From assembly GCA_048941385.1 (NCBI GenBank), contig JBHLNR010000003.1, positions 333-64,332 on the forward strand: a stretch of 64,000 nucleotides of DNA, written 5' to 3'. The notes beneath the pieces are model-generated. The model was not told where the DNA came from and did no database searches. It worked only from the letters and a program-made list of their open reading frames with translations. How positions within the stretch are numbered: the stretch's first letter is position 1; every line of letters starts with the position of its first letter. The position numbers were made by a program, and so were the translations under genes. The DNA comes from Promethearchaeota archaeon (GTDB taxonomy: Archaea; Asgardarchaeota; Lokiarchaeia; Sigyniarchaeales; SOKP01). Of the stretch, positions 4,242 through 21,028 are shown in pieces.

Positions 4242-4461
4242 AAATCTTTGAATAAATTACTCTAACAGTTATAATTAGTTTTGTCATATTGAATCAGGGA
4301 CTAAGTTTTAGCCGATTATAATCTACAGTTTCACTCACATTGGCAATGTTGTTTAAAGGATCTACTACAATTTAACCGTTGGAAATAAAAATTATCGAAA
4401 AAAGTTAAATAAAACTGTTAAATACTTATCAATATATAGAATTTTTTATGAGGAGAAATTT

Positions 4462-5769
4462 ATGTCTAAAAAAGAAATAGCTTGGTACGAAAATGATATG
4501 CTTAAAGATAGTTACATTAAGGCTGGATCAAACGCTTTTAGAGGTTACCATGCACCTATTGTAAGTCCTAAAACGACTTTTATTGGCACTAATAGCTTAA
4601 ATGATTTTATAAATCACATTTCAGCTTATTTAACCAATGAGGAAAAACGGGTTTTGATAGTAGTTGATAAAGATCTACTTAAGTTGGGTGAAAGAGTAGC
4701 TAACAGGTTAAAACAACGTAATATTGATTCGAAATTTTATAGTAATGTACTTCCAGATGCGCCAAAATTTACAATACTTGAAGGTGCCCAGCTCTGTGAA
4801 GAATATGATCCAAAAGTAATCTTAGCTATAGGAGGTGGATCTGCAATGGATACTGCAAAACTAATTCTGCTATACTATGAACAACCTGGAATAAATATCA
4901 ACAACATGAGTGCTCCGTATTATGCGGGACTTAGGAAAAAGGCAAAGATTTTAGCAGCAATACCAACTACTTCTGGAACTGGTTCAGAAACAACATTTAT
5001 TGCTGTGGTGACAGACACTGATAGGGATCCGCCTAAGAAAACAGAAGTGGTATTATATGAATTCTGCCCAGATTTCGTTGTTCTCCATCCTGATTTTGTT
5101 AAGACTATGCCACCTTATTTAACCACTGGAACTGGTATGGATGCACTTGCTCACTCAATGGGTTCTTATATGCTAACAATGAGTACTCTATTTACAGATA
5201 TGCATAACTTAAAAGCTATCGAACTGATTTTAAAGTATTTACCTCGTTCTGTAAAGAGAGGGAGTGATATTGAAGCCAGAGAGAAAATGCAAATGGCTGC
5301 CTATATTGCTGGGATAGGATTTGGAAACATATCTGGGGGGATTGAACATTCTTTAGGACATTCATTTGGAGCATTATTCCATGTTCATCATGGGATATGT
5401 GTGGGTTTATTTTTATGCGCTTCAATTGCTTTTCAAGCAAAGGTAACCAATAGGTTTTTTGATCTTGCAAAGTTATTCGAGATTGAATTAAATAACCGAG
5501 ATAGAGAAGGGATTTTAAGAGATTTACTTATTAACTTAAGAGATTTCATGAGAAGGGTTAATTGTCCCTTATCAATTAAAGAATTAGATAATCCTAAAAT
5601 ATCAAAAGAAGAATATTTAGCAAATTTAGAACAAATGGTCGATTTTGCGTTTAATGACTATTGTACATTATCATCTACTCGAAGAATTAATCGTCCACAA
5701 TATAAAAAAATCTTCGAAATAGTCTACGATAACAAATTAGAAGATTTAATGAATTTATTTTATGATTAG
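4462..5769 (+). CDS. Iron-containing (group III) alcohol dehydrogenase
   Basis: GGGSAMDTAK nucleotide-binding motif and the metal-binding His cluster IEHSLGHSFGALFHVHHG. GAGGAG Shine-Dalgarno upstream. Confidence 0.85.
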   Translation: MSKKEIAWYENDMLKDSYIKAGSNAFRGYHAPIVSPKTTFIGTNSLNDFINHISAYLTNEEKRVLIVVDKDLLKLGERVANRLKQRNIDSKFYSNVLPDAPKFTILEGAQLCEEYDPKVILAIGGGSAMDTAKLILLYYEQPGININNMSAPYYAGLRKKAKILAAIPTTSGTGSETTFIAVVTDTDRDPPKKTEVVLYEFCPDFVVLHPDFVKTMPPYLTTGTGMDALAHSMGSYMLTMSTLFTDMHNLKAIELILKYLPRSVKRGSDIEAREKMQMAAYIAGIGFGNISGGIEHSLGHSFGALFHVHHGICVGLFLCASIAFQAKVTNRFFDLAKLFEIELNNRDREGILRDLLINLRDFMRRVNCPLSIKELDNPKISKEEYLANLEQMVDFAFNDYCTLSSTRRINRPQYKKIFEIVYDNKLEDLMNLFYD

Positions 5770-5781
5770 GAGGAATTAAAG

Positions 5782-7650
5782 ATGGATAAAATAAATGGGT
5801 ATAATGGTAAAGTAGCATATATCGATTTAAGTACTTCAAATGTAGATTTAAAAAACCTAGAACTTGAACTTATTGAAGAGTATTTAGGAGGTGCAGGACT
5901 TTCAGCTAAACTTACTTATGATTTACTAGATGATGATGCTTATCAAGTTCTAAAAAACGATCCCTTAGCTAGTGTAAATCCATTGATTTTTTCAACTGGT
6001 CCTCTAACTGGGACTGCTACACCGTCTAGTAGTAGATATTGCGTTACAGCGATTTCACCTCTTACAGGGATATGGGGGGAGGCAACTTCCGGAGGATTTC
6101 TCCCAATTGCTTTAAAAAGGTGTGGGTATGATGCTATTGTAATTACTGGTGAAAGTTCGACTCCTAAATTTATATACATCGACAATGGTAAAATAGAAAT
6201 TAAAGATGGAGATAATCTTTGGGGAAAAAATACTCGGGAAACAATTGAATCAATTAGAGAAAACCTTAATGATAATAAACTTAGGATTGCGTGTATCGGA
6301 AAAGCAGGTGAAAATTTAGTAAAATATGCAGGTATAATTAATGATGAGGGACGAGCAGCAGGTAGATGTGGGCTAGGGGCGTTAATGGGCAAGAAAAAAT
6401 TAAAAGCTCTAGCAATAAAAGGAAACCAGGTAATCGAATATGCTGATAAAGAAGGATTAAGAAACCAAGGAAGGATTTCTCAAGAAAATGTAATGATTCC
6501 TATCGTCTCAAATCTATTTTCTCACTATGGAACATTGCTTTACACTGACATGGGTATGGTTATAGGAGATGTACCCGCTAATTATTTTACTAACACTGAG
6601 TTTATCGCAGAGGATTTAACAGGAAGGGCATTAAAGGAGCAATATGTAGTACTAAAATATGCCTGTTCGGGATGTGTTATTGGTTGTGGGAGAACTACGC
6701 TCTTAGAAATCGACGGGAAAGAGATAGAAGTTGATGGTCCTGAATATGAGACAACAGCCGCTTTCGGACCGCTATGTGGTATCTTTCATTTTAAACCTAT
6801 TCTTGAAGCAAACCATAAATGTAATCTCGCAGGAGTAGATACAATTTCTAGTGGAGTATCAATCGCTTTTCTCATCTATTTGGTTGAGAATAATATTGCC
6901 AAAAATGAAATCGAGAAATATCTAAATGAAATTAGTATTGAAAAAATTCGATGGGGAAACGAAGAAATTGTCTTAAAATTATTAGATCTATTAATCAATA
7001 GAAAAGGAATAGGAGATTTATTAGCTGAAGGGACAAGAATAATGGCTAAAAAGCTAGGGGTTGATCCGGGACTAGCTGCCCATGTAAAAGGCTTAGAAAT
7101 ACCTATGCATGATCCCCGCGCATATTTAGGACAGGCTCTAACTTACATGACGGGTTGTACAGGGGCTAACCACAATAAGGGAGACTTTTATAACATCGAT
7201 GGTGATGCTGCATCTTATGCAAAAATCAGGAAAAAAGATCGATTTACAGTTGATAAAAGGGAAAAAGCCGTAATTGCTTATCAAGATTTAACTAATATTT
7301 ATGATTCAGCAGTGATTTGCAATTTTACACATCTTAATGATGGCGTCTTAGCAAGATTACTAAAATTATCTACTGGAATTCAATCATTTGGAAGTAGTGG
7401 TACTCTATTCAAAATAGGAGAACGCGCTTCAAACCTTAAAAGACTAATTTCATGTAAACTTGGTTGTAAACGAGAGGATGACTACTTACCAAAAATTACT
7501 TCAACCGCTTTAAAGACTGGAGGTTCAGCTGGGATTGCTGTGAATTTAGAGGAAAACTTAAAAGTATATTATGAAAAGCGGGGTTGGGTGTGGGAGACAG
7601 GTTTTCCATCTGAAAAAAAACTGAGGGAGCTCAATATAATAAAATCTTAA
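5782..7650 (+). CDS. aor: Aldehyde:ferredoxin oxidoreductase (tungstopterin AOR family)
   Basis: 622 aa. N-terminal GKVAYIDLS pattern, [4Fe-4S] ligand motif CSGCVIGCG, and EYETTAAFG and DTIS motifs typical of the AOR family. AGGAGG 7 nt upstream, 12 nt after the ADH stop. Confidence 0.9.
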   Translation: MDKINGYNGKVAYIDLSTSNVDLKNLELELIEEYLGGAGLSAKLTYDLLDDDAYQVLKNDPLASVNPLIFSTGPLTGTATPSSSRYCVTAISPLTGIWGEATSGGFLPIALKRCGYDAIVITGESSTPKFIYIDNGKIEIKDGDNLWGKNTRETIESIRENLNDNKLRIACIGKAGENLVKYAGIINDEGRAAGRCGLGALMGKKKLKALAIKGNQVIEYADKEGLRNQGRISQENVMIPIVSNLFSHYGTLLYTDMGMVIGDVPANYFTNTEFIAEDLTGRALKEQYVVLKYACSGCVIGCGRTTLLEIDGKEIEVDGPEYETTAAFGPLCGIFHFKPILEANHKCNLAGVDTISSGVSIAFLIYLVENNIAKNEIEKYLNEISIEKIRWGNEEIVLKLLDLLINRKGIGDLLAEGTRIMAKKLGVDPGLAAHVKGLEIPMHDPRAYLGQALTYMTGCTGANHNKGDFYNIDGDAASYAKIRKKDRFTVDKREKAVIAYQDLTNIYDSAVICNFTHLNDGVLARLLKLSTGIQSFGSSGTLFKIGERASNLKRLISCKLGCKREDDYLPKITSTALKTGGSAGIAVNLEENLKVYYEKRGWVWETGFPSEKKLRELNIIKS

Positions 7651-13993: not shown

Positions 13994-15475
13994 ATGTCTG
14001 ATCTTATTTATGATATAGCGATTATTGGGGCAGGTCCAGGAGGTTATCATGCAGCAATAAGAGCAGCTCAATATGGTGCTAAAGTTGCTGTAATTGAAAA
14101 AGACAAACTCGGAGGGACTTGTTTGAACCGTGGTTGTATCCCCACCAAAGCTTTATATGCTTCTGTTCAAGCTATAGAGAAATTGAAGGATTTTGAGGAT
14201 CTTGGTATAGAAATAACAGAGTTCAAACTAAATTTTAAAAAAGCTGTAGAAAGAAAGAACCGTATAGTTACAGAATTAGTTAATGGAATAGATACTTTAG
14301 AGAAAGCTTGGAAAAATGATTTATACTTTGGACACGGTAAAATTGTTGGAGGTAATGTAGAAACTGGTTTTAAAATCTCAATTCAAGATGGAAAAGACAC
14401 TACTATTAAAGCAAAGAGAGTTATCCTAGCCACAGGGTCTTCTCCGGCATTAATTCCTTCCTTTAACATAGACCATGAAAAAATTTTAACTAGTAACGAT
14501 ATTTTAGATCCTAATTTCACTACAGTGCCAGGTAGATTGCTAATCATTGGTGCGGGTGTAATCGGATGTGAATTTGCTAATATTTTTGCATCCTTCGGTA
14601 GTAAAGTTACGATGTTAGAGTACCTTGCTTCACCTATAGCTACTGAAGAACCTATGATAGTAAAAGAATTGATTAAGAAGTTCAATGAACTAGATATTGA
14701 AATAATAACATCTCAAAACGTTCTTTCAGTACAAAATACAGGATCAGGTGTTAAGGTGATAACATGTTCTGCTTCTGTTCCAAGAGATGAAATTGAAGAA
14801 GCAGAGAAGTTTAGTTTTGAAGGAGATATATGCTTAGTTTCAATCGGAAGAGAAAAAGAATCAAAAAATCTCGGATTAGAAGAAATGGGAGTTAAAACAG
14901 ATAGGGGGGCTATAAGATGCAATGGCAACACATTAGAGACTTCTGTTGAAGGAGTCTATGCCATAGGTGATGTAACTGGAGGTTTGATGTTAGCTCATGT
15001 TGCTTATCATGAAGCAGATGTAGCAGTTGCTAATGCATTAGCTAGCATTGGAAATTTCCCTGTAAAAAAAACCAGTACTGATTATAGAGTTGTTCCTGCA
15101 ACTATTTTTACTACACCAAATATTGGATCTGTGGGAATAAGGAGGAAAGCAGCAAAGGATCATGGTATAGATGTATTAATGGGACAATTTCCTTATAGAT
15201 CTTCAGGAAAGGCAAAATGTATGAGTGAAGAAGAAGGGTTTTTAATGACAATTGCAGAAAAGGAAACATTTAAGCTTATAGGTGCTTCATGTATAGGCAT
15301 TGAAGCTTCTGAATTAATTGCAGAACTTGCACTCGCTATTAAACATGGACTGACTGTCCATGATGTTGCGGAGACAATTCATAGTCATCCCACCATCTCC
15401 GAGATGGTACTTGAAGGAAGTGAAGCCGTAATTGGAAAAGCTATTCATAAAAAAGGAAGACCTATTCATGAATAA
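13994..15475 (+). CDS. lpd: Dihydrolipoamide dehydrogenase
   Basis: FAD motif IIGAGPGGY, redox-active disulfide GGTCLNRGCIPTK, NAD motif IIGAGVIGCE, and C-terminal HSHPTISE interface motif. Confidence 0.9.
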   Translation: MSDLIYDIAIIGAGPGGYHAAIRAAQYGAKVAVIEKDKLGGTCLNRGCIPTKALYASVQAIEKLKDFEDLGIEITEFKLNFKKAVERKNRIVTELVNGIDTLEKAWKNDLYFGHGKIVGGNVETGFKISIQDGKDTTIKAKRVILATGSSPALIPSFNIDHEKILTSNDILDPNFTTVPGRLLIIGAGVIGCEFANIFASFGSKVTMLEYLASPIATEEPMIVKELIKKFNELDIEIITSQNVLSVQNTGSGVKVITCSASVPRDEIEEAEKFSFEGDICLVSIGREKESKNLGLEEMGVKTDRGAIRCNGNTLETSVEGVYAIGDVTGGLMLAHVAYHEADVAVANALASIGNFPVKKTSTDYRVVPATIFTTPNIGSVGIRRKAAKDHGIDVLMGQFPYRSSGKAKCMSEEEGFLMTIAEKETFKLIGASCIGIEASELIAELALAIKHGLTVHDVAETIHSHPTISEMVLEGSEAVIGKAIHKKGRPIHE

Positions 15476-15540
15476 ATACCCTATTAGTTTTGATTTTCTG
15501 TAATTTTGTAGTTTTAACGAAATAAAAATGTTAGTAATTT

Positions 15541-15557
15541 AATTCTTGTTTTTAAGG
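15541..15557 (+). repeat. Direct repeat R1 (AATTCTTGTTTTTAAGG)
   Basis: Identical 17-mer recurs at 16543..16559. A near copy is at 16689..16705. Confidence 0.8.
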
Positions 15558-15635
15558 TTAATGGCGTTAATCATACTCAAATACAAATATATTTATGTGC
15601 TTTTAATAACATTTATTATTGGCGAGAATAATAAA

Positions 15636-16472
15636 ATGGTTGAGATGAGAAAAATTGTTGATAAATCACTAATGATGGTCTTTTTGTTAGAGAAATGCAA
15701 TTTTTCATGTATACATTGTGTGCGAGTAGATGAACCCATGCCTATTGGTTATAAATTATCTTTTGAGCAACTTAAGTTATGTTTATCAGATTGTCATACA
15801 TTAGAAACAATAGAATGGGTTCACTTTTCAGGTGGTGAACCAACTTTATGGACGGATGAAAAATTAGATTTGGCAGATCTTTTGATCGAGATTTCAAAAG
15901 CTGGTTTCGAACCTGGTTTTACAACAAATGGTAGTTATTTCATTGATTACATAAAATGTCATGAGCTTTTTCAAAAATATTTTAATAATGCAAATAAACG
16001 TTTACGCCTTTATATCAGCATTGACACGTTTCACCAAAATTTTAATGTTCAAAAAGGAAGAGCAAAAAGCCTTGATAATGTTATTAAATACAAATTAACT
16101 CTCCCATCCAAGAAAAGAGAATTGTTTAATATTATTGTGATAACCACAATTTCTAAAGATCCACAGTCATTGCTTCCGAAGAAAATGATTAAGCATTATC
16201 AATCCTTAGGATTAGAATTCCTTTTTCTTCCATTAAGAGCTGTAGGTAAAGGAAAATCATTGAGTTATTTATGTCCTAATCTTGAAAGTAATAAACAAGA
16301 AGAACTGGGAGCCTATTATCCTTTTCATCAAAAAAAAGAAAGAAAGGAACGATTTGTAACGATAAATCTTGTTCTTATTGATAATGGCTACTATTTTCAT
16401 AATCCTTGGCGTAAAATTGGGAGCCTTGGACACATACCATTAAGAGTTATTGATATGTATAAATTGAATTAA
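15636..16472 (+). CDS. Small radical SAM protein
   Basis: CNFSCIHC (CxxxCxxC) about 20 aa from the ATG at 15636, and the FSGGEPTLW SAM-binding motif. The TTG-started N-terminal extension in the ORF track (from 15546) covers repeat R1 and is probably not translated. Confidence 0.75.
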   Translation: MVEMRKIVDKSLMMVFLLEKCNFSCIHCVRVDEPMPIGYKLSFEQLKLCLSDCHTLETIEWVHFSGGEPTLWTDEKLDLADLLIEISKAGFEPGFTTNGSYFIDYIKCHELFQKYFNNANKRLRLYISIDTFHQNFNVQKGRAKSLDNVIKYKLTLPSKKRELFNIIVITTISKDPQSLLPKKMIKHYQSLGLEFLFLPLRAVGKGKSLSYLCPNLESNKQEELGAYYPFHQKKERKERFVTINLVLIDNGYYFHNPWRKIGSLGHIPLRVIDMYKLN

Positions 16473-16542
16473 TACTCTTAGATTTTTTATGTATAAATAA
16501 CCTACTAGTTTAGTTTTACTATTGTTCGATACACTCTTAATA

Positions 16543-16559
16543 AATTCTTGTTTTTAAGG
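16543..16559 (+). repeat. Direct repeat R2 (AATTCTTGTTTTTAAGG)
   Basis: Identical to R1. The preceding ~55 nt also resemble the spacer after the lpd stop (AAATACCCTATTAGTTT vs AAATAACCTACTAGTTT). Confidence 0.8.
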
Positions 16560-16568
16560 ATGTTTTAA

Positions 16569-16657
16569 ACTGTCCATGATGTTGCGGAGACAATTCTAGT
16601 AGTGAAGCATCGATTGGTAAAGCTATTCATAAAAAAGGTAGACCTATTCACGATTGA
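16569..16657 (+). pseudogene. Decayed duplicate of the 3' end of lpd
   Basis: 16569..16596 is 28/28 identical to lpd 15353..15380. After a ~30-nt deletion and frameshift it continues as AGTGAAGCATCGATTGGTAAAGCTATTCATAAAAAAGGTAGACCTATTCACGATTGA (SEASIGKAIHKKGRPIHD*). The lpd end reads SEAVIGKAIHKKGRPIHE*. Confidence 0.85.
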
Positions 16658-16688
16658 ATGTTATAGGTATTGTTCACTATCATCTTAA

Positions 16689-16705
16689 AATTTCTTGTTT
16701 TTAAA
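16689..16705 (+). repeat. Direct repeat R3 (AATTTCTTGTTTTTAAA, degenerate copy)
   Basis: R2 and R3 plus the following ~10 nt align (ATTCTTGTTTTTAAGGATGTTTTAAA vs TTTCTTGTTTTTAAATATGTTTTTAAA). R3 lies about 90 nt upstream of the next gene's ATG, so it may also be a promoter element. Confidence 0.6.
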
Positions 16706-16796
16706 TATGTTTTTAAATATCTTATTTTACTAATTATTTGCCTTCCTTAATCATAATTTTATGGTTTGTTATTGATCAATAATAAGTTTGCATAGG

Positions 16797-18146
16797 ATGC
16801 TTCGTCAAGTATATGTACTTAAAGAAAATGATGTAATTTATAAACGAGCATATGGAAATGCTCTGAGTAATTCTGAAGTTGAAGATCTGAGTTTTAGGAT
16901 TTTAAAAGAGGTAAAAACAAGCCTTGGGAGAACTTCAGGACATTTTGATTTCATTAAGTATAGAATAGCATATGAAGTTGAGGTTGAAATCAACTTAATT
17001 TTTCTATTTATTACAGGATTGATGGATGATTATTATCGATTGATCAAGCCCCAATTGTTTAACTTTAAGGACCAATTTATAAATCGTCTAGGAGATGATT
17101 TAAAAGGAAAAGACATAAGGAATATAAGTTTTACTGGTATTAACGTAATGCTCGACGAGATGCATAGAAATTTAAAACCAAAAATAGCTGTTGTAGGATT
17201 TGCTGGAGTGGGTAAAACTACTATAAAAAAATTAATAAAAATGGATGAGATTCCTCTTCAACATGTTCCCACTATTACAGGTGAAATCGCTACAATAAAA
17301 ATAGGGAGGCTTTTATTTCGTTTATTTGATTTTGCGGGTCAAGAACAATTTAAATTCCTTTGGAAGGGATTTATAAAGGAAAGTGACGCTGTACTTGTTG
17401 TTACTGATTCTACAATGAAAAATGTTGAAAAAAGCAAATTTTTTATAAACCTCATTAATGAAGAAGTTCCTCATGCACGAGCTGCTTTTATAGCTAATAA
17501 ACAAGACTTAAACAAAGCGATGAGTCCAGAAGAAATAGAAAAAATAACGGGTTTAAAAACATATCCCATGGTTGCAAACCATAAAGAAAACCGGAACAAA
17601 ATGATTCGAGTTATCGCAGATGTGCTGGATATGAGTACCGAAAATTCACCATTACTAGAAGAATTGTTTAATACTACAGATTTATCAGCCGATACCTTAG
17701 TTATACCTGAAGACACTAAAATTATTGAAGAAACACCAATAATAGGAGAAAATGAAGTTCCTCTAAATACCATTCGGTTAGAAAAGATAGAAACTACTAG
17801 CAATGCGAGAGATAAGATTGATCAAGTTATATCAAGTAATATTGAAATTAAACCGATTATGTTTAAAAGTGGGCTTTCAAGCGACGATATCAAATCTCCA
17901 ATTGAAAATGCTTTAGTCCCATCCGATCTATTTGAAGAACTTATTAATGGAAACTCATATACACTAAATGAAAAGCTGAGTATTATTTTTACAGTAATCA
18001 ATTGTGCTTTTCTTACTAAAACTAATCCTGAGGAATACCCCAAATTTGGAAGTTTTTTGAGAAATTTTAAGATGGATGTTTTTAATTCTAAACAATTAAG
18101 GACTATCCGAAAATTCTATTCAAAAATCATTAAACAAGTGACATAG
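16797..18146 (+). CDS. Longin-like N-terminal domain fused to an Arf/Rab-like small GTPase with a C-terminal extension
   Basis: GTPase motifs G1 GFAGVGKTT, G3 DFAGQE, G4 NKQD. The preceding ~125 aa (VYVLKENDVIYKRAYG...IAYEVEVEINLIFLFITG) have a longin/roadblock-like strand-helix pattern. ATG at 16797 is preferred over TTG at 16788. Confidence 0.7.
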   Translation: MLRQVYVLKENDVIYKRAYGNALSNSEVEDLSFRILKEVKTSLGRTSGHFDFIKYRIAYEVEVEINLIFLFITGLMDDYYRLIKPQLFNFKDQFINRLGDDLKGKDIRNISFTGINVMLDEMHRNLKPKIAVVGFAGVGKTTIKKLIKMDEIPLQHVPTITGEIATIKIGRLLFRLFDFAGQEQFKFLWKGFIKESDAVLVVTDSTMKNVEKSKFFINLINEEVPHARAAFIANKQDLNKAMSPEEIEKITGLKTYPMVANHKENRNKMIRVIADVLDMSTENSPLLEELFNTTDLSADTLVIPEDTKIIEETPIIGENEVPLNTIRLEKIETTSNARDKIDQVISSNIEIKPIMFKSGLSSDDIKSPIENALVPSDLFEELINGNSYTLNEKLSIIFTVINCAFLTKTNPEEYPKFGSFLRNFKMDVFNSKQLRTIRKFYSKIIKQVT

Positions 18147-18170: not shown

Positions 18171-20261
18171 TTATCGATTAATATATTCTACTTTAAAAGA
18201 ATTTAATTTCCCATCTTTGATTTCAACAATTCTAAATGCTCCAGCTGTTTCTGGATTTTTATATCCACCTAGCCCTAAAGCAGGAGTTTGAACTATGAAG
18301 GGTCTATTTTTTTCAATACTCTCATAATCTGTGTAGAGTTCAGAATATATATCATAATAAACTGCTGCAGGATTCTCAATTTTTTTTAAACTGAAAGGAG
18401 GTGAATCATACACTCTAGTTTTTATCTCTGGATCCTCCAATCGAAACTCCCGCAATGTATGTGTATGCCCAGAAAGTGTAAGAGTGCAATAATCCTTACA
18501 GAATTTAACAAGTTTTTCCCAATTTGAAGAAATTGTTCCATATTTTACGTTAAACATTTTGTCTAATCTTGCATCGGAACTTGATTGTCCTAATTTTCTG
18601 AGAACGGATTCTTTGAAGTCATCGATTTTTTCTTTAATAAAACGCCCCCCTTTTTTTTCAAAAAGTTTAATACTAATTCTTTTTTCTCCAGTATTTATCG
18701 GAGGACCATGCAAAAACAAAAAGACATTGGAATTTTCTTGTATTTTATTGTTTATAATATTTTCCAGATAGTTTATCTGCCTACCAGCGATTCCTGTTAC
18801 TGAGGGATGTCCTGTGAGTAAATCTCTAATGTTTTTAAAAGAATCAGATCCTGTGTTTAAGAAAATAAAATTATTATTTCCCAGTGTTAAAGAATAGTTA
18901 AAGGAAGGATTTATTTCTGATAAATATCCTTTTAATGCCATCGTAGATTTAACTAATGCTGTAATTGGAGAAGCAGAAAAAAGTTCATTCAATGCAATAG
19001 CTTCAGCAGCGTTCAATCCTATTTTTGTATACATTTCACCCCAAGTTAGATCATAATGATATGGTCGATAATCATGATTTCCAACTGTTGTAAAAATAGG
19101 ACATAATAATTCTTCGGCTTTAATTGCTCCTTTATGATGTTTTTGATATTTTGAGTTGAGAAGTATGTCTTTAAAGATTTTCCAATTACTCTCTTCATAT
19201 TTAAATTCATTTAATTTGCGAACTTTTTTTGCTAATCTACTCAATACGGTATAATCGACGAGATCACCTGTGAGAACGATAAAATCAACCTCATTTCTAA
19301 ATACTCTTCTATTTATGATTTTAATAAATTTTCTAAACTGATTATTCGGATTTACGAGACGTTTTCTTAAAGGAATTTTCATATCTGTTATTGTTTTATC
19401 TCGATTGTCTTTTTTTTTGAGTTTTAGTTTCTTCACAACTGTATCGAAGAAATCATCTACACTTCTCTTAACCGATGATTCAGTCCATTTTTTAACGATA
19501 CTATAAATTCTGTCGTTTCTTTCTGCTAAATGCAGATCAGTGGCATGAATAAATGTAAAATTCTTCCAATCTCTTTTAGAAATAACAATTGAGTGAAAAT
19601 TGATTCTGCCTTGTGAGGAAATTATGTCGAACATTACAAAAGTTCGTTCTTTTAGAAAATTCTTCACTTCCTTGCTGATTGCAAATTTAACAGATACCAG
19701 ATAAAAATTAGTGAGATTACCAAAAATGCTATACTTTAATAAATAATCCTGTGGAGCTAATTTATCTAAATAGGAAACACTGGAAATCGGAATTGTGGAG
19801 ATTTCTTTGATATCAATAACAGAAAGTAAAAGAGCGTTCCCTCTATAGGGATGTACTTTTAACTTCTTGAACTTGTAGTCAACATCATCTGACTTGAAAT
19901 CAATTTCATCCCTTGCTATTTCACGCTCTATAATTTTTTGCTTTCTTTTTCTAATTTTTTTTTTATGTCTTCTTACCCAAAAACCTTCTGCTTTTTCTGA
20001 GATTTTCTTTTTTAACTCATAAATATCTCTATATTTCCACTGATAATCTAAAACCGGAGCTAGTTTTATATTCCTATCAACTTTTTTTCTGAATTCCTTA
20101 GGATCCAGTACATCACTTATAATAAGAATCTCTGTCTGAAATTCCTTTTTTTTCAATTTGCGATCTATATTTAAAAATATAGGACGCCCTAAATTAGGGT
20201 TAACAATTATTGATTCATATGGTTTTTCTTCTTTACTTACGTGCAATTTTTTGAAAAACAA
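18171..20261 (-). CDS. Calcineurin-like metallophosphoesterase with a ~230-aa Lys-rich N-terminal domain of unknown function
   Basis: MPE motifs HATDLHL, LTGDLVDY, GNHDY, LHGPP, SGHTHT in the C-terminal two thirds. The N-terminal region contains RRHKKKIRKRKQK. Confidence 0.75.
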   Translation of the reverse strand: MFFKKLHVSKEEKPYESIIVNPNLGRPIFLNIDRKLKKKEFQTEILIISDVLDPKEFRKKVDRNIKLAPVLDYQWKYRDIYELKKKISEKAEGFWVRRHKKKIRKRKQKIIEREIARDEIDFKSDDVDYKFKKLKVHPYRGNALLLSVIDIKEISTIPISSVSYLDKLAPQDYLLKYSIFGNLTNFYLVSVKFAISKEVKNFLKERTFVMFDIISSQGRINFHSIVISKRDWKNFTFIHATDLHLAERNDRIYSIVKKWTESSVKRSVDDFFDTVVKKLKLKKKDNRDKTITDMKIPLRKRLVNPNNQFRKFIKIINRRVFRNEVDFIVLTGDLVDYTVLSRLAKKVRKLNEFKYEESNWKIFKDILLNSKYQKHHKGAIKAEELLCPIFTTVGNHDYRPYHYDLTWGEMYTKIGLNAAEAIALNELFSASPITALVKSTMALKGYLSEINPSFNYSLTLGNNNFIFLNTGSDSFKNIRDLLTGHPSVTGIAGRQINYLENIINNKIQENSNVFLFLHGPPINTGEKRISIKLFEKKGGRFIKEKIDDFKESVLRKLGQSSSDARLDKMFNVKYGTISSNWEKLVKFCKDYCTLTLSGHTHTLREFRLEDPEIKTRVYDSPPFSLKKIENPAAVYYDIYSELYTDYESIEKNRPFIVQTPALGLGGYKNPETAGAFRIVEIKDGKLNSFKVEYINR

Positions 20262-20923: not shown

Positions 20924-21028
20924 AGGCCCGTGGCCTAGTCTGGATAGGGCGGCAGCCTCCTAAGCTGAAGATCATAGGCTTCTGTAACCTAAGATCAGAA
21001 ATCGGGGGTTCAATTCCCCTCGGGCCTG
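20924..21028 (+). tRNA. tRNA-Arg (anticodon CCU) with a ~30-nt intervening sequence 3' of the anticodon stem
   Basis: Acceptor AGGCCCG (20924-30) / CGGGCCT (21021-27). D arm GCCT-AGTCTGGATA-GGGC. Anticodon arm GCAGC-CTCCTAA-GCTG with CCT at 20959-61. T arm GGGGG-TTCAATT-CCCCT. Discriminator G; no encoded CCA. About 30 extra nt (approx. 20968-20998) lie between the anticodon stem and the variable loop. Confidence 0.85.

Follow-up and report, generated by a model that had tools for sequence, protein, structure and literature searches.

Stacked lpd 3' ends around a radical-SAM gene in a Loki-type Asgard archaeon: a probable outcome of integrase-free recombination in a conserved gene end

How did a small radical-SAM (rSAM) gene come to lie among repeated copies of the end of lpd in the genome of a Loki-type Asgard archaeon? 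We analyzed this genome (G000; the other G-numbers designate genomes of its relatives) over a window of 64,000 nucleotides, i.e., the whole stretch of DNA under study, to which all positions refer. The locus comprises an intact lpd gene, three lpd-end units (U1 to U3), the rSAM gene, and two conserved genes on the right-hand side, as follows.

13994-15475, + strand: lpd (dihydrolipoyl dehydrogenase), intact, 493 aa (TIGR01350, 462 bits versus a cut-off of 408.8; Pfam Pyr_redox_2 and Pyr_redox_dim)
within 13994-15475, + strand: unit U1, the last ~120 nt of lpd, the end in use
15353-15385, + strand: segment A, lpd nt 1360-1392, which has a second copy at 16569-16600 (identity 28/28, or 32/33 with one indel)
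15419-15477, + strand: segment B, resident copy, the last 19 lpd codons plus stop
15476-15540, + strand: spacer 1, a homologue of the spacer between lpd and the GTPase gene in G068, whose ~31-nt "beta" segment it lacks
15541-15557, + strand: R1, AATTCTTGTTTTTAAGG, a duplicate of the upstream portion of the predicted GTPase promoter region, 79 nt ahead of the rSAM ATG
15611-16475, + strand: rSAM gene block (ORF 15636-16472, 278 aa), its DNA in common with orthologues elsewhere beginning 25-35 nt ahead of the ATG and ending at the stop
16481-16568, + strand: unit U2, comprising an lpd-tail-like 26-mer, a conserved beta segment, R2, and 9 TATA-like nt up to the A' junction
16569-16659, + strand: unit U3, coding part, a displaced 3' fragment of lpd in which 34 nt are missing between A' and B', frameshifted and lacking a start codon
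16660-16721, + strand: unit U3, noncoding part, with a shortened spacer 3, R3, and tandem GTTTTTAAATAT TATA-like boxes
16797-18146, + strand: Arf-family GTPase gene, the ancestral 3' neighbor of lpd in this subclade
18171-20261, - strand: metallophosphoesterase gene, conserved, bounding the variable slot on the right

The repeats are real and nonrandom. Segment A (15353-15380) and A' (16569-16596) are identical over 28 of 28 nucleotides, a 28-mer with an expected chance count of 0 and no further copy in the window or in the 3.97-Mb genome, and in the lpd tail B matches B' (16601-16659) at 50 of 59 positions. Gapped alignment of the lpd end with 16473-16720 scored 95 versus 16.5 ± 2.4 for shuffled sequences (maximum, 30), i.e., >30 standard deviations above them. 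R1 and R2 (16543-16559) agree at 17 of 17 positions and are the sole exact copies in the genome, which rules out R as a genome-wide repeat or the end of a miniature element. The interval from A' to B' is short of 34 nt net, matching a deletion of ~30 nt described in an earlier note made from the letters of the DNA, and this shifts the frame; B' translates as SEASIGKAIHKKGRPIHD followed by a stop, and the coding part of U3 is a pseudogene remnant. Past the rSAM stop codon, a 26-nt stretch (16486-16511, TTTATGTATAAATAACCTACTAGTTT) matches the lpd tail at 22 of 26 positions, a score equaled by 0 of 500 shuffles, although part of it can also be placed elsewhere in the spacer in a multiple alignment with the relatives. 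A MAFFT placement of the U2 start in mid-spacer was dropped for the lpd-tail alignment after the shuffle test. The repeated lpd end, spacer copy, R1/R2 pair, and frameshifted fragment that the earlier note had reported were thus all recovered at the same positions; its degenerate R3 is present too, as a weaker copy (14/17) at 16690-16706, one base away from the coordinates given there.

In a genome of 31% G+C, short AT-rich matches such as R3 can arise by chance (1.5 expected at ≤3 mismatches to R), and R3 taken by itself would be compatible with this; yet it occupies the place orthologous to that of R in G068 and G004. Similarity no better than that of AT-rich DNA in general is refuted for A, B, and R1/R2. 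A second public assembly, GCA_048886105.1, contains the same 8.8 kb at 99.89% identity with zero differences within 15353-16705, making an assembly artefact unlikely. Chance similarity or misassembly is, on these data, an extremely improbable account of the locus. A search for structured RNA in 15300-16900 found none, with one subthreshold match to a miRNA model (E = 0.089).

Comparison of the lpd loci of relatives, as expected if this were the insertion footprint initially proposed, revealed empty sites. A single lpd-spacer-R-GTPase unit is present in G068 and G004, the GTPase gene adjoins lpd in G004, G068, G035, G066, and G070, and in six further genomes (G002, G013, G015, G023, G010, and G067) lpd directly faces the phosphoesterase gene. 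The gap between lpd and the GTPase gene spans 1322 nt in G000 versus 59 to 209 nt in five relatives. The unexpanded loci in close relatives indicate that the rSAM gene and the two extra units are a species-specific insertion. No donor genome with an lpd-R-rSAM arrangement was found. Sliding identity of lpd against G068, G002, G004, and G067, used to look for a breakpoint, was uninformative, the last ~90 nt being conserved in all of them.

The relatives also clarify the nature of R. The noncoding part of U3 runs straight into the GTPase gene just as it does in them, and R3 lies within a promoter-like region conserved before that gene, suggesting that R1 and R2 are copies of promoter sequence, as the earlier note had considered. 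We therefore regard R as the upstream part of the conserved, putative GTPase promoter region, and R1 may now help transcribe the rSAM gene. The beta segment plus R2 of U2 is identical to G068 at 36 of 38 positions (counted by eye on the alignment).

The gene enclosed by the units encodes a protein matching the Radical SAM family (PF04055, 35.7 bits versus a cut-off of 29.5), with a CxxxCxxC cluster motif whose cysteines (C21, C25, and C28) are invariant in 40 homologues. In fold, the protein comes closest to the peptide epimerase EpeE (TM score, 0.58) and then to MoaA. An identity as viperin (pVip) was rejected: the NF038283 score was 44 bits against a cut-off of 180, and the PADLOC pVip match (46 bits) covered the N-terminal half alone. 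A foreign composition gave no signal (GC, 30.3%; GC3, 21.9%), the gene ranking at the 18th percentile of native genes in codon-usage distance. An orthologue turned up in just 2 of the 36 searched genomes of the genus, its context differing from case to case and lacking flanking repeats. Across related genomes the gene is found in five other contexts, none of the four inspected having direct repeats, and DNA homology among the copies extends over the ORF plus 25 to 45 nt upstream, ending at the stop. No conserved neighbors were seen in Zixibacteria, a Eubacterium-labelled record, or Promethearchaeota contigs. These observations speak against the discrete mobile element or cassette with att sites that had been envisaged, and against a cassette carrying its own flanking repeats.

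Displaced lpd ends are not peculiar to G000. Among the 54 genomes of the genus, six others carry lpd 3' fragments behind an intact lpd, 0.5 to 23.5 kb downstream (among them G003, with two orphan ends of 76 to 79 aa, and G024, G064, G030, and G012, with one each). The fragments start at different points of lpd (nt 1238, 1246, ~1250, 1274, 1294, 1307, and 1360, the last being that of G000), and the cargo differs and is unrelated among the islands (rSAM, wHTH, hexapeptide protein, Cas6/Csm6, and SIR2-TPR), in disagreement with a fixed attachment site. In G024 and G064, the fragment is of native type (89 to 91% identical to relatives) and the end in use is the aberrant one (about 79 to 81%); the fragment borders an 88-aa gene, which in G061, G034, G009, G016, and G076 comes immediately after lpd. 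Resident and displaced ends differ mostly by synonymous changes, with dN/dS values of 0.07 to 0.18 in seven comparisons, six of them over 57 to 81 codons and that of G000 (0.11) over just 18 codons, and without internal stops in the displaced fragments. Such values argue for divergence of the ends in a functional state and for transfer as what united them, which agrees with the replacement lpd end suggested earlier and disfavors its alternative of duplication followed by gene capture. Identity along the copies forms a mosaic in G012, G064, and G000, as expected from recombination.

Searches for an integrase bore out its reported absence: no recombinase domain was detected in the G000 insert or neighboring genes, and no integrase in any of the six related islands. 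The genome-wide search, made for tyrosine recombinases (PF00589), gave a single match, on another contig (C83). That the scar recurs in relatives without an integrase points to an ordinary, if instructive, footprint of gene gain rather than a new mobile element.

Taking these data together, we think that the stack of three lpd-end units probably arose by integrase-free recombination anchored in the conserved gene end, in at least two events. The ancestral state would have been that of G068 and G004, i.e., lpd, a ~105-nt spacer, a promoter region (R plus TATA box), and the GTPase gene. Incoming DNA from related Lokiarchaeia, consisting of an lpd 3' end and downstream sequence and, in the last event, the rSAM gene, would have recombined, by way of the conserved coding end, with the lpd already present, the junction at the far side of the incoming DNA being illegitimate; alternatively, a circularized fragment may have integrated by a single crossover. 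By either route lpd would remain whole, having gained a new end and displaced the former one downstream. U3 (16569-16721) would then be the native end, still on the GTPase promoter, U2 (16481-16568) an intermediate end-plus-spacer copy, and U1 the end now used.

The main competing explanation is that the locus was rearranged in situ, by tandem duplications of the lpd end, spacer, and promoter through template switching in replication or unequal exchange between copies of the genome, the rSAM gene being captured at a junction and the copies decaying later without any foreign lpd end. Several features favor it: A' holds G000-specific variants of A where G068 and G002 differ, R1 and R2 share a derived ending (...AAGG), the partial units form a patchwork whose junctions show short microhomology or none, much as template switching would leave, and the conserved last 60 to 90 nt of lpd leave B without donor signal. 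A decaying duplicate, however, is not what the displaced ends look like; the B/B' differences are mostly synonymous with the stop codon kept, and the frames of the six other displaced ends are open. Nor does it account well for G024 and G064, where the end in use is the foreign-like one and the fragment the native-like one, or for the very uneven divergence along the units, with 100% beside 60 to 85% identity. We consider an origin in situ unlikely.

A remnant of a site-specific integrative element, with A (or R) as the att core, a replacement lpd end, and an integrase lost or acting in trans, would fit the layout of the locus, in which a segment of 1216 bp lies between identical direct repeats of 28 nt in the manner of attL and attR, the copy after attL completing lpd and that after attR corresponding to a diverged original end. 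Against it stand the lack of an integrase in the segment, the window neighborhood, and the six related islands, the presence of just one tyrosine recombinase gene in the genome, and the six different starting positions of the displaced ends elsewhere and their unrelated cargo. In addition, the rSAM gene occurs in other contexts without such repeats, and A and R are found nowhere else in the genome. This makes an integrative element distinctly improbable.

Integrase-free recombination in the gene end, the reading we prefer, has its own difficulties. A/A' and R1/R2 are perfect matches, while adjoining parts of the same units are 60 to 85% alike; this requires a crossover in, or duplication of, recipient sequence at these points, later gene conversion, or constraint on R. 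Moreover, beta is missing from U1, and U3 is short of 34 coding nt and ~63 nt of spacer, so extra deletions must be assumed. Classical homology-facilitated illegitimate recombination usually deletes, rather than duplicates, recipient DNA.

The closest known parallel is provided by the Rhs, CDI, and T6SS effector-immunity loci, with sequential arrays of displaced 3' ends proposed to form via homology-facilitated illegitimate recombination (Kirchberger et al. 2017, PMC5361080; see also Jackson et al. 2009 and Poole et al. 2011, as cited in PMC5361080). In those arrays as at lpd, the conserved upstream part of the gene serves as recombination anchor without a recombinase, a new end arrives with cargo while old ends stack downstream as orphans, and relatives have shorter or empty arrays. 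An intact gene followed by same-strand orphan 3' ends with DNA in between was found in G000, G003, G012, G024, G030, and G064, along with functional divergence of the ends and an unexpanded locus in relatives. However, lpd is a housekeeping metabolic gene rather than a polymorphic toxin, the host is an Asgard archaeon, the cargo is miscellaneous, and spacer and promoter sequence are duplicated too. Instead of a new toxin domain with its cognate immunity gene, the lpd tail is the same and the cargo neither toxin nor immunity gene, so the locus works like a displacement array and not like a polymorphic-toxin locus.

Other known systems resemble the locus in part. Prophage e14 and phage 21 insert by means of an integrase into the 3' end of Escherichia coli icd and bring a replacement end. 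The lpd locus similarly has an identical short direct repeat at both borders and a gene kept whole by an element-borne end, with the diverged original end downstream, but it lacks an integrase, a fixed core position, and phage or plasmid genes, and its cargo is a single gene. Hence, of the features typical of such elements (e14/icd, or archaeal SSV/pNOB8 at tRNA genes), the border repeat is present, whereas a recombinase and a constant core position are absent. Campbell-type single-crossover insertion-duplication also leaves an insert flanked by direct copies of the homologous region, each possibly a donor/recipient chimera, which would fit the mosaic identity in G012, G064, and G000; it is known, however, mainly as a laboratory outcome with nonreplicating plasmids, and the lpd case would need natural circularization of a chromosomal fragment of a related species. 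Integron cassettes are likewise single promoter-poor ORFs added at a fixed point with older entries pushed back, but the lpd locus has no IntI, no attI/attC, and no repeat common to the rSAM copies elsewhere. With an integrase lacking and the rSAM copies of other contexts sharing no DNA outside the ORF, an integron cassette was rejected.

Two further cases were found in G000: an 844-aa gene lies between two copies of the end of an FtsX-type permease gene, a site that is empty in G004 and G026, and a 505-aa oxidoreductase gene lies between two copies of a histidine-kinase gene end. A large protein with an HNH motif and winged helix, patchy, multicopy, and often pseudogenized, is encoded beside lpd in six genomes. 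Conceivably, this protein serves an undescribed element as the nuclease that makes breaks at such sites; within 1.5 kb of its other copies, no displaced gene ends were found except in the lpd case. A general recombinase-free route by which Lokiarchaeia, perhaps archaea broadly, add accessory and defense genes behind conserved genes appears quite unlikely at present. If it did exist, the segment between two gene-end copies would loop out, giving a circle that contains cargo and one gene end and that would reenter any genome with the conserved gene by a single crossover, and housekeeping gene ends would be shared landing pads.

Asgard genomes are large and rich in acquired genes, yet descriptions of classical mobile elements from the Loki lineage are, to our knowledge, few. 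With the phenomenon known from bacterial polymorphic-toxin loci, the present case is of value because it adds new hosts and targets; the principle itself is not new. The lpd loci give a concrete view of single accessory genes and whole defense islands entering behind a conserved gene, whose end would be the homology anchor, with no integrase. Their stacked ends are dated scars that can be used to order events and find donors, and the scar is a practical marker of variable slots in fragmented metagenome-assembled genomes.

The lpd locus lies on contig C7 of a metagenome-assembled genome of 3.97 Mb and 31% G+C (G000), and all of the repeats that an earlier note had listed at the lpd 3' end and downstream of it (A/A', B/B', R1/R2, and R3) are present in the sequence. 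The small radical-SAM gene placed between them was likewise confirmed as an open reading frame, except that its ATG lies one base before the position implied in that note.

Features of the lpd locus in G000 (A and B, repeated stretches of the lpd 3' end; R, 17-nt motif; U, lpd-end units)
13994-15475, + strand, lpd (TIGR01350, 462 bits, above the cut-off)
15353-80 and 16569-96, A and A', 28/28 identical; extended to 16600, 32/33 with one indel
15419-77 and 16601-59, B and B', 50/59 identical
15541-57 and 16543-59, R1 and R2, 17/17 identical
15636-16472, + strand, radical-SAM gene, 278 aa (PF04055, 35.7 bits)
U1, the resident lpd end, i.e., the end in use
16481-16568, U2: last few lpd codons only, then spacer, conserved beta segment, and R2
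16569-16721, U3: A', 34-nt gap, B', shortened spacer, and R3
16690-706, R3, 14/17 matches
16797-18146, + strand, Arf-family GTPase gene
18171-20261, - strand, metallophosphoesterase gene

The resemblance between these stretches, which had been read as a degenerate triplication, exceeds chance, the lpd-end alignment scoring 95 against 16.5 +/- 2.4 for shuffles. Immediately behind the radical-SAM stop, a 26-mer agrees at 22/26 positions with the lpd tail and the beginning of spacer 1, a score reached by 0/500 shuffles; together with the listed repeats, this match therefore defines three lpd-end units. A whole-genome search of G000 found no further copies of A or R. Over 8.8 kb, another assembly (GCA_048886105.1) matches at 99.89% identity, with zero differences within the finding. 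Further along the window, 50 nt at 20924-20973 are 98 to 100% identical in the related genomes G067 and G068, against about 78% in the surroundings, and coincide with a tRNA-Arg gene.

In two relatives, G068 and G004, the order is lpd, a single spacer of ~105 nt, a single R, the GTPase gene, and the phosphoesterase gene. The GTPase orthologue adjoins lpd in G004, G068, G035, G066, and G070, with a gap of 59 to 209 nt compared to 1322 nt in G000; lpd faces the phosphoesterase gene directly in G002, G013, G015, G023, G010, and G067. The extra ~1.1 kb, i.e., the radical-SAM gene plus two units, is therefore particular to the species of G000. Alignment of the G068, G004, G035, and G066 spacers with U1-U3 identified beta-R and the next TTTAAATA box as the conserved intergenic part; beta plus R2 of U2 and G068 are identical at 36/38 positions (counted by eye on the alignment), with lpd itself only about 80% identical between the two genomes. 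On this conservation and the archaeal TATA consensus, R is the upstream portion of a probable GTPase promoter. In the region upstream of the GTPase gene (16690-16740 of the window, and the orthologous spacers in G035, G004, and G066), a short palindrome (TTCTTGCTTTTCAAGAA in G035) stands right before the TTTAAATA box, and a conserved ATCTTATTTTACTAA comes after the box; the arrangement is a possible regulator binding site. The G000 version of the palindrome is degenerate, and the TATA-like box there is tandemly duplicated. A single in-frame TAA lies close to the 5' end of the GTPase orthologue of G004 (contig C97, 20766-22112; ~4380-4390 of excised locus L059), which may reflect a pseudogene or a sequencing error.

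Cys residues C21, C25, and C28 are invariant among homologues of the 278-aa protein, which is a bona fide radical-SAM protein; its model (pLDDT 74.8) is nearest to the peptide epimerase EpeE (TM 0.58) and MoaA, and a viperin identity was rejected by score (44 bits versus 180). A search for orthologues (75 to 79% aa identity) turned them up in only 2 of 36 genomes of the genus, as well as in a few other Promethearchaeota assemblies. Their contexts all differ (beside hisS, behind a luciferase-like gene, or between TFIIB and PlsY-type genes), and DNA likeness is confined to the ORF and 25 to 45 nt upstream, ending at the stop codon. No flanking direct repeats surround the orthologues in the other contexts examined. 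Remoter homologues (53 to 67%) are dispersed across bacteria and archaea, and no conserved neighbours were found beside them. The gene's GC content and codon usage, which the earlier note proposed to compare with those of its neighbours, proved native-like. In G025 (contig C64, L026), the orthologue is flanked by two fragments, at 4995-5204 and 6426-6707: a 69-aa piece resembling by eye an FAD-linked oxidase C-terminus, and a 93-aa C-terminal histidyl-tRNA synthetase fragment, at whose position G028 has a full-length hisS. These may be additional displaced gene ends.

Searching 54 genus genomes with the last 78 lpd residues recovered short orphans, i.e., displaced lpd 3' fragments, behind lpd genes that are themselves intact; gene and orphan share strand and contig in each case.

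Orphans and their distance behind lpd
G003, two orphans, +0.5 and +2.0 kb
G024, +2.3 kb
G064, +4.5 kb
G030, +10.9 kb
G012, +23.5 kb

The DNA between lpd and orphan differs entirely from case to case, its cargo including a hexapeptide-repeat protein, a large HNH-like-motif protein, Cas6 and Csm6, a C39 peptidase, DUF285, SIR2-TPR, and a 78-aa protein that is winged-helix-like by eye and has no Pfam match. The orphans of G024 and G064 lie directly against an 88-aa gene that trails lpd immediately in five relatives, which proves that the intervening DNA is an insertion; in both genomes, the native-type end is the orphan and the odd end is the one in use. Defence-type genes lie in the G012 island (L101, 7442-9701; Cas6 and a Csm6-like CARF/HEPN protein) and the G030 island (L103, 2145-4988; a SIR2-TPR protein), and the lpd slot is therefore also a defence-gene hotspot.

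The large HNH-like proteins (630 to 1335 aa, without Pfam family) carry CxxC...HH...CxxCH motifs by eye, one with a weak MarR-type match at its C-terminus (L101:558-4169 in G012, L104:1691-3583 in G024, L105:1581-5588 in G064, G001:C352:1554-1769, G013:C42:36676-37629, and G023:C1:259940-260935). The gene lies directly or a few kilobases 3' of lpd in six genomes, is missing from 29/54 genus genomes, and reaches up to 6 copies in others, frequently with in-frame stops, a selfish-gene profile.

Whole-genome self-comparison of G000 revealed two further displaced ends. An FtsX-type permease 3' end is repeated 2.9 kb downstream at 79.5% identity (contig C66, 1436-1567 and 4337-4468; L110), with an 844-aa beta-propeller-repeat gene between the two ends and the empty site seen in G004 and G026. 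A PAS/GAF histidine-kinase 3' end is repeated 1.7 kb downstream at 87% (contig C285, 2325-2377 and 582-634; L111), enclosing a 505-aa pyridine-nucleotide-disulphide oxidoreductase gene.

The evidence at the lpd locus fits recombination anchored at a conserved gene end. This could proceed by homologous exchange on one side and an illegitimate join on the other, or by entry of a circularised donor fragment via a single crossover; by either route the gene would stay intact and its old end be displaced. An equivalent scheme has been put forward for Rhs/CDI/T6SS displacement arrays (PMC5361080), and the lpd locus operates like such a 3'-end displacement array. A polymorphic-toxin locus, an integron, and an integrase element were each tested on their defining features and rejected.

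Orphan and resident ends are 76 to 90% identical in a mosaic manner: ~90 identical nt on the 5' side followed by about 72% in G012, a 65-nt identical block mid-copy in G064, and 28 identical nt and then 85% in G000. dN/dS between resident and displaced ends is 0.07 to 0.18 in 7/7 comparisons, and none of the orphans contains an internal stop, which argues that the ends diverged separately in different lineages while functional and were joined later; we consider a history of purely local duplication followed by capture unlikely. What is not fully explained is why A/A' and R1/R2 are identical at every position beside only 60 to 85% elsewhere, why U1 lacks beta, and why U3 carries deletions; possible causes are a duplication of the recipient sequence lying between join and crossover, gene conversion in short patches, or a constraint acting on R. 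A degraded site-specific element is less probable still: orphan starts range over lpd nt 1238-1360, and there is therefore no common core; no integrase occurs in any of the DNA between lpd and the orphans of related genomes, and the single tyrosine recombinase gene of G000 is located elsewhere.

Under anchored recombination, at least two events would be needed in G000 because three units are present. U3 is the native end and, like the single unit of G068 and G004, adjoins the GTPase promoter; the radical-SAM gene would have arrived with, or entered, the unit now in use; we cannot order these steps with confidence. The displaced lpd end is a real and recurrent feature, and the stack in G000 is informative on gene gain in Asgard archaea, by a process of a known kind.
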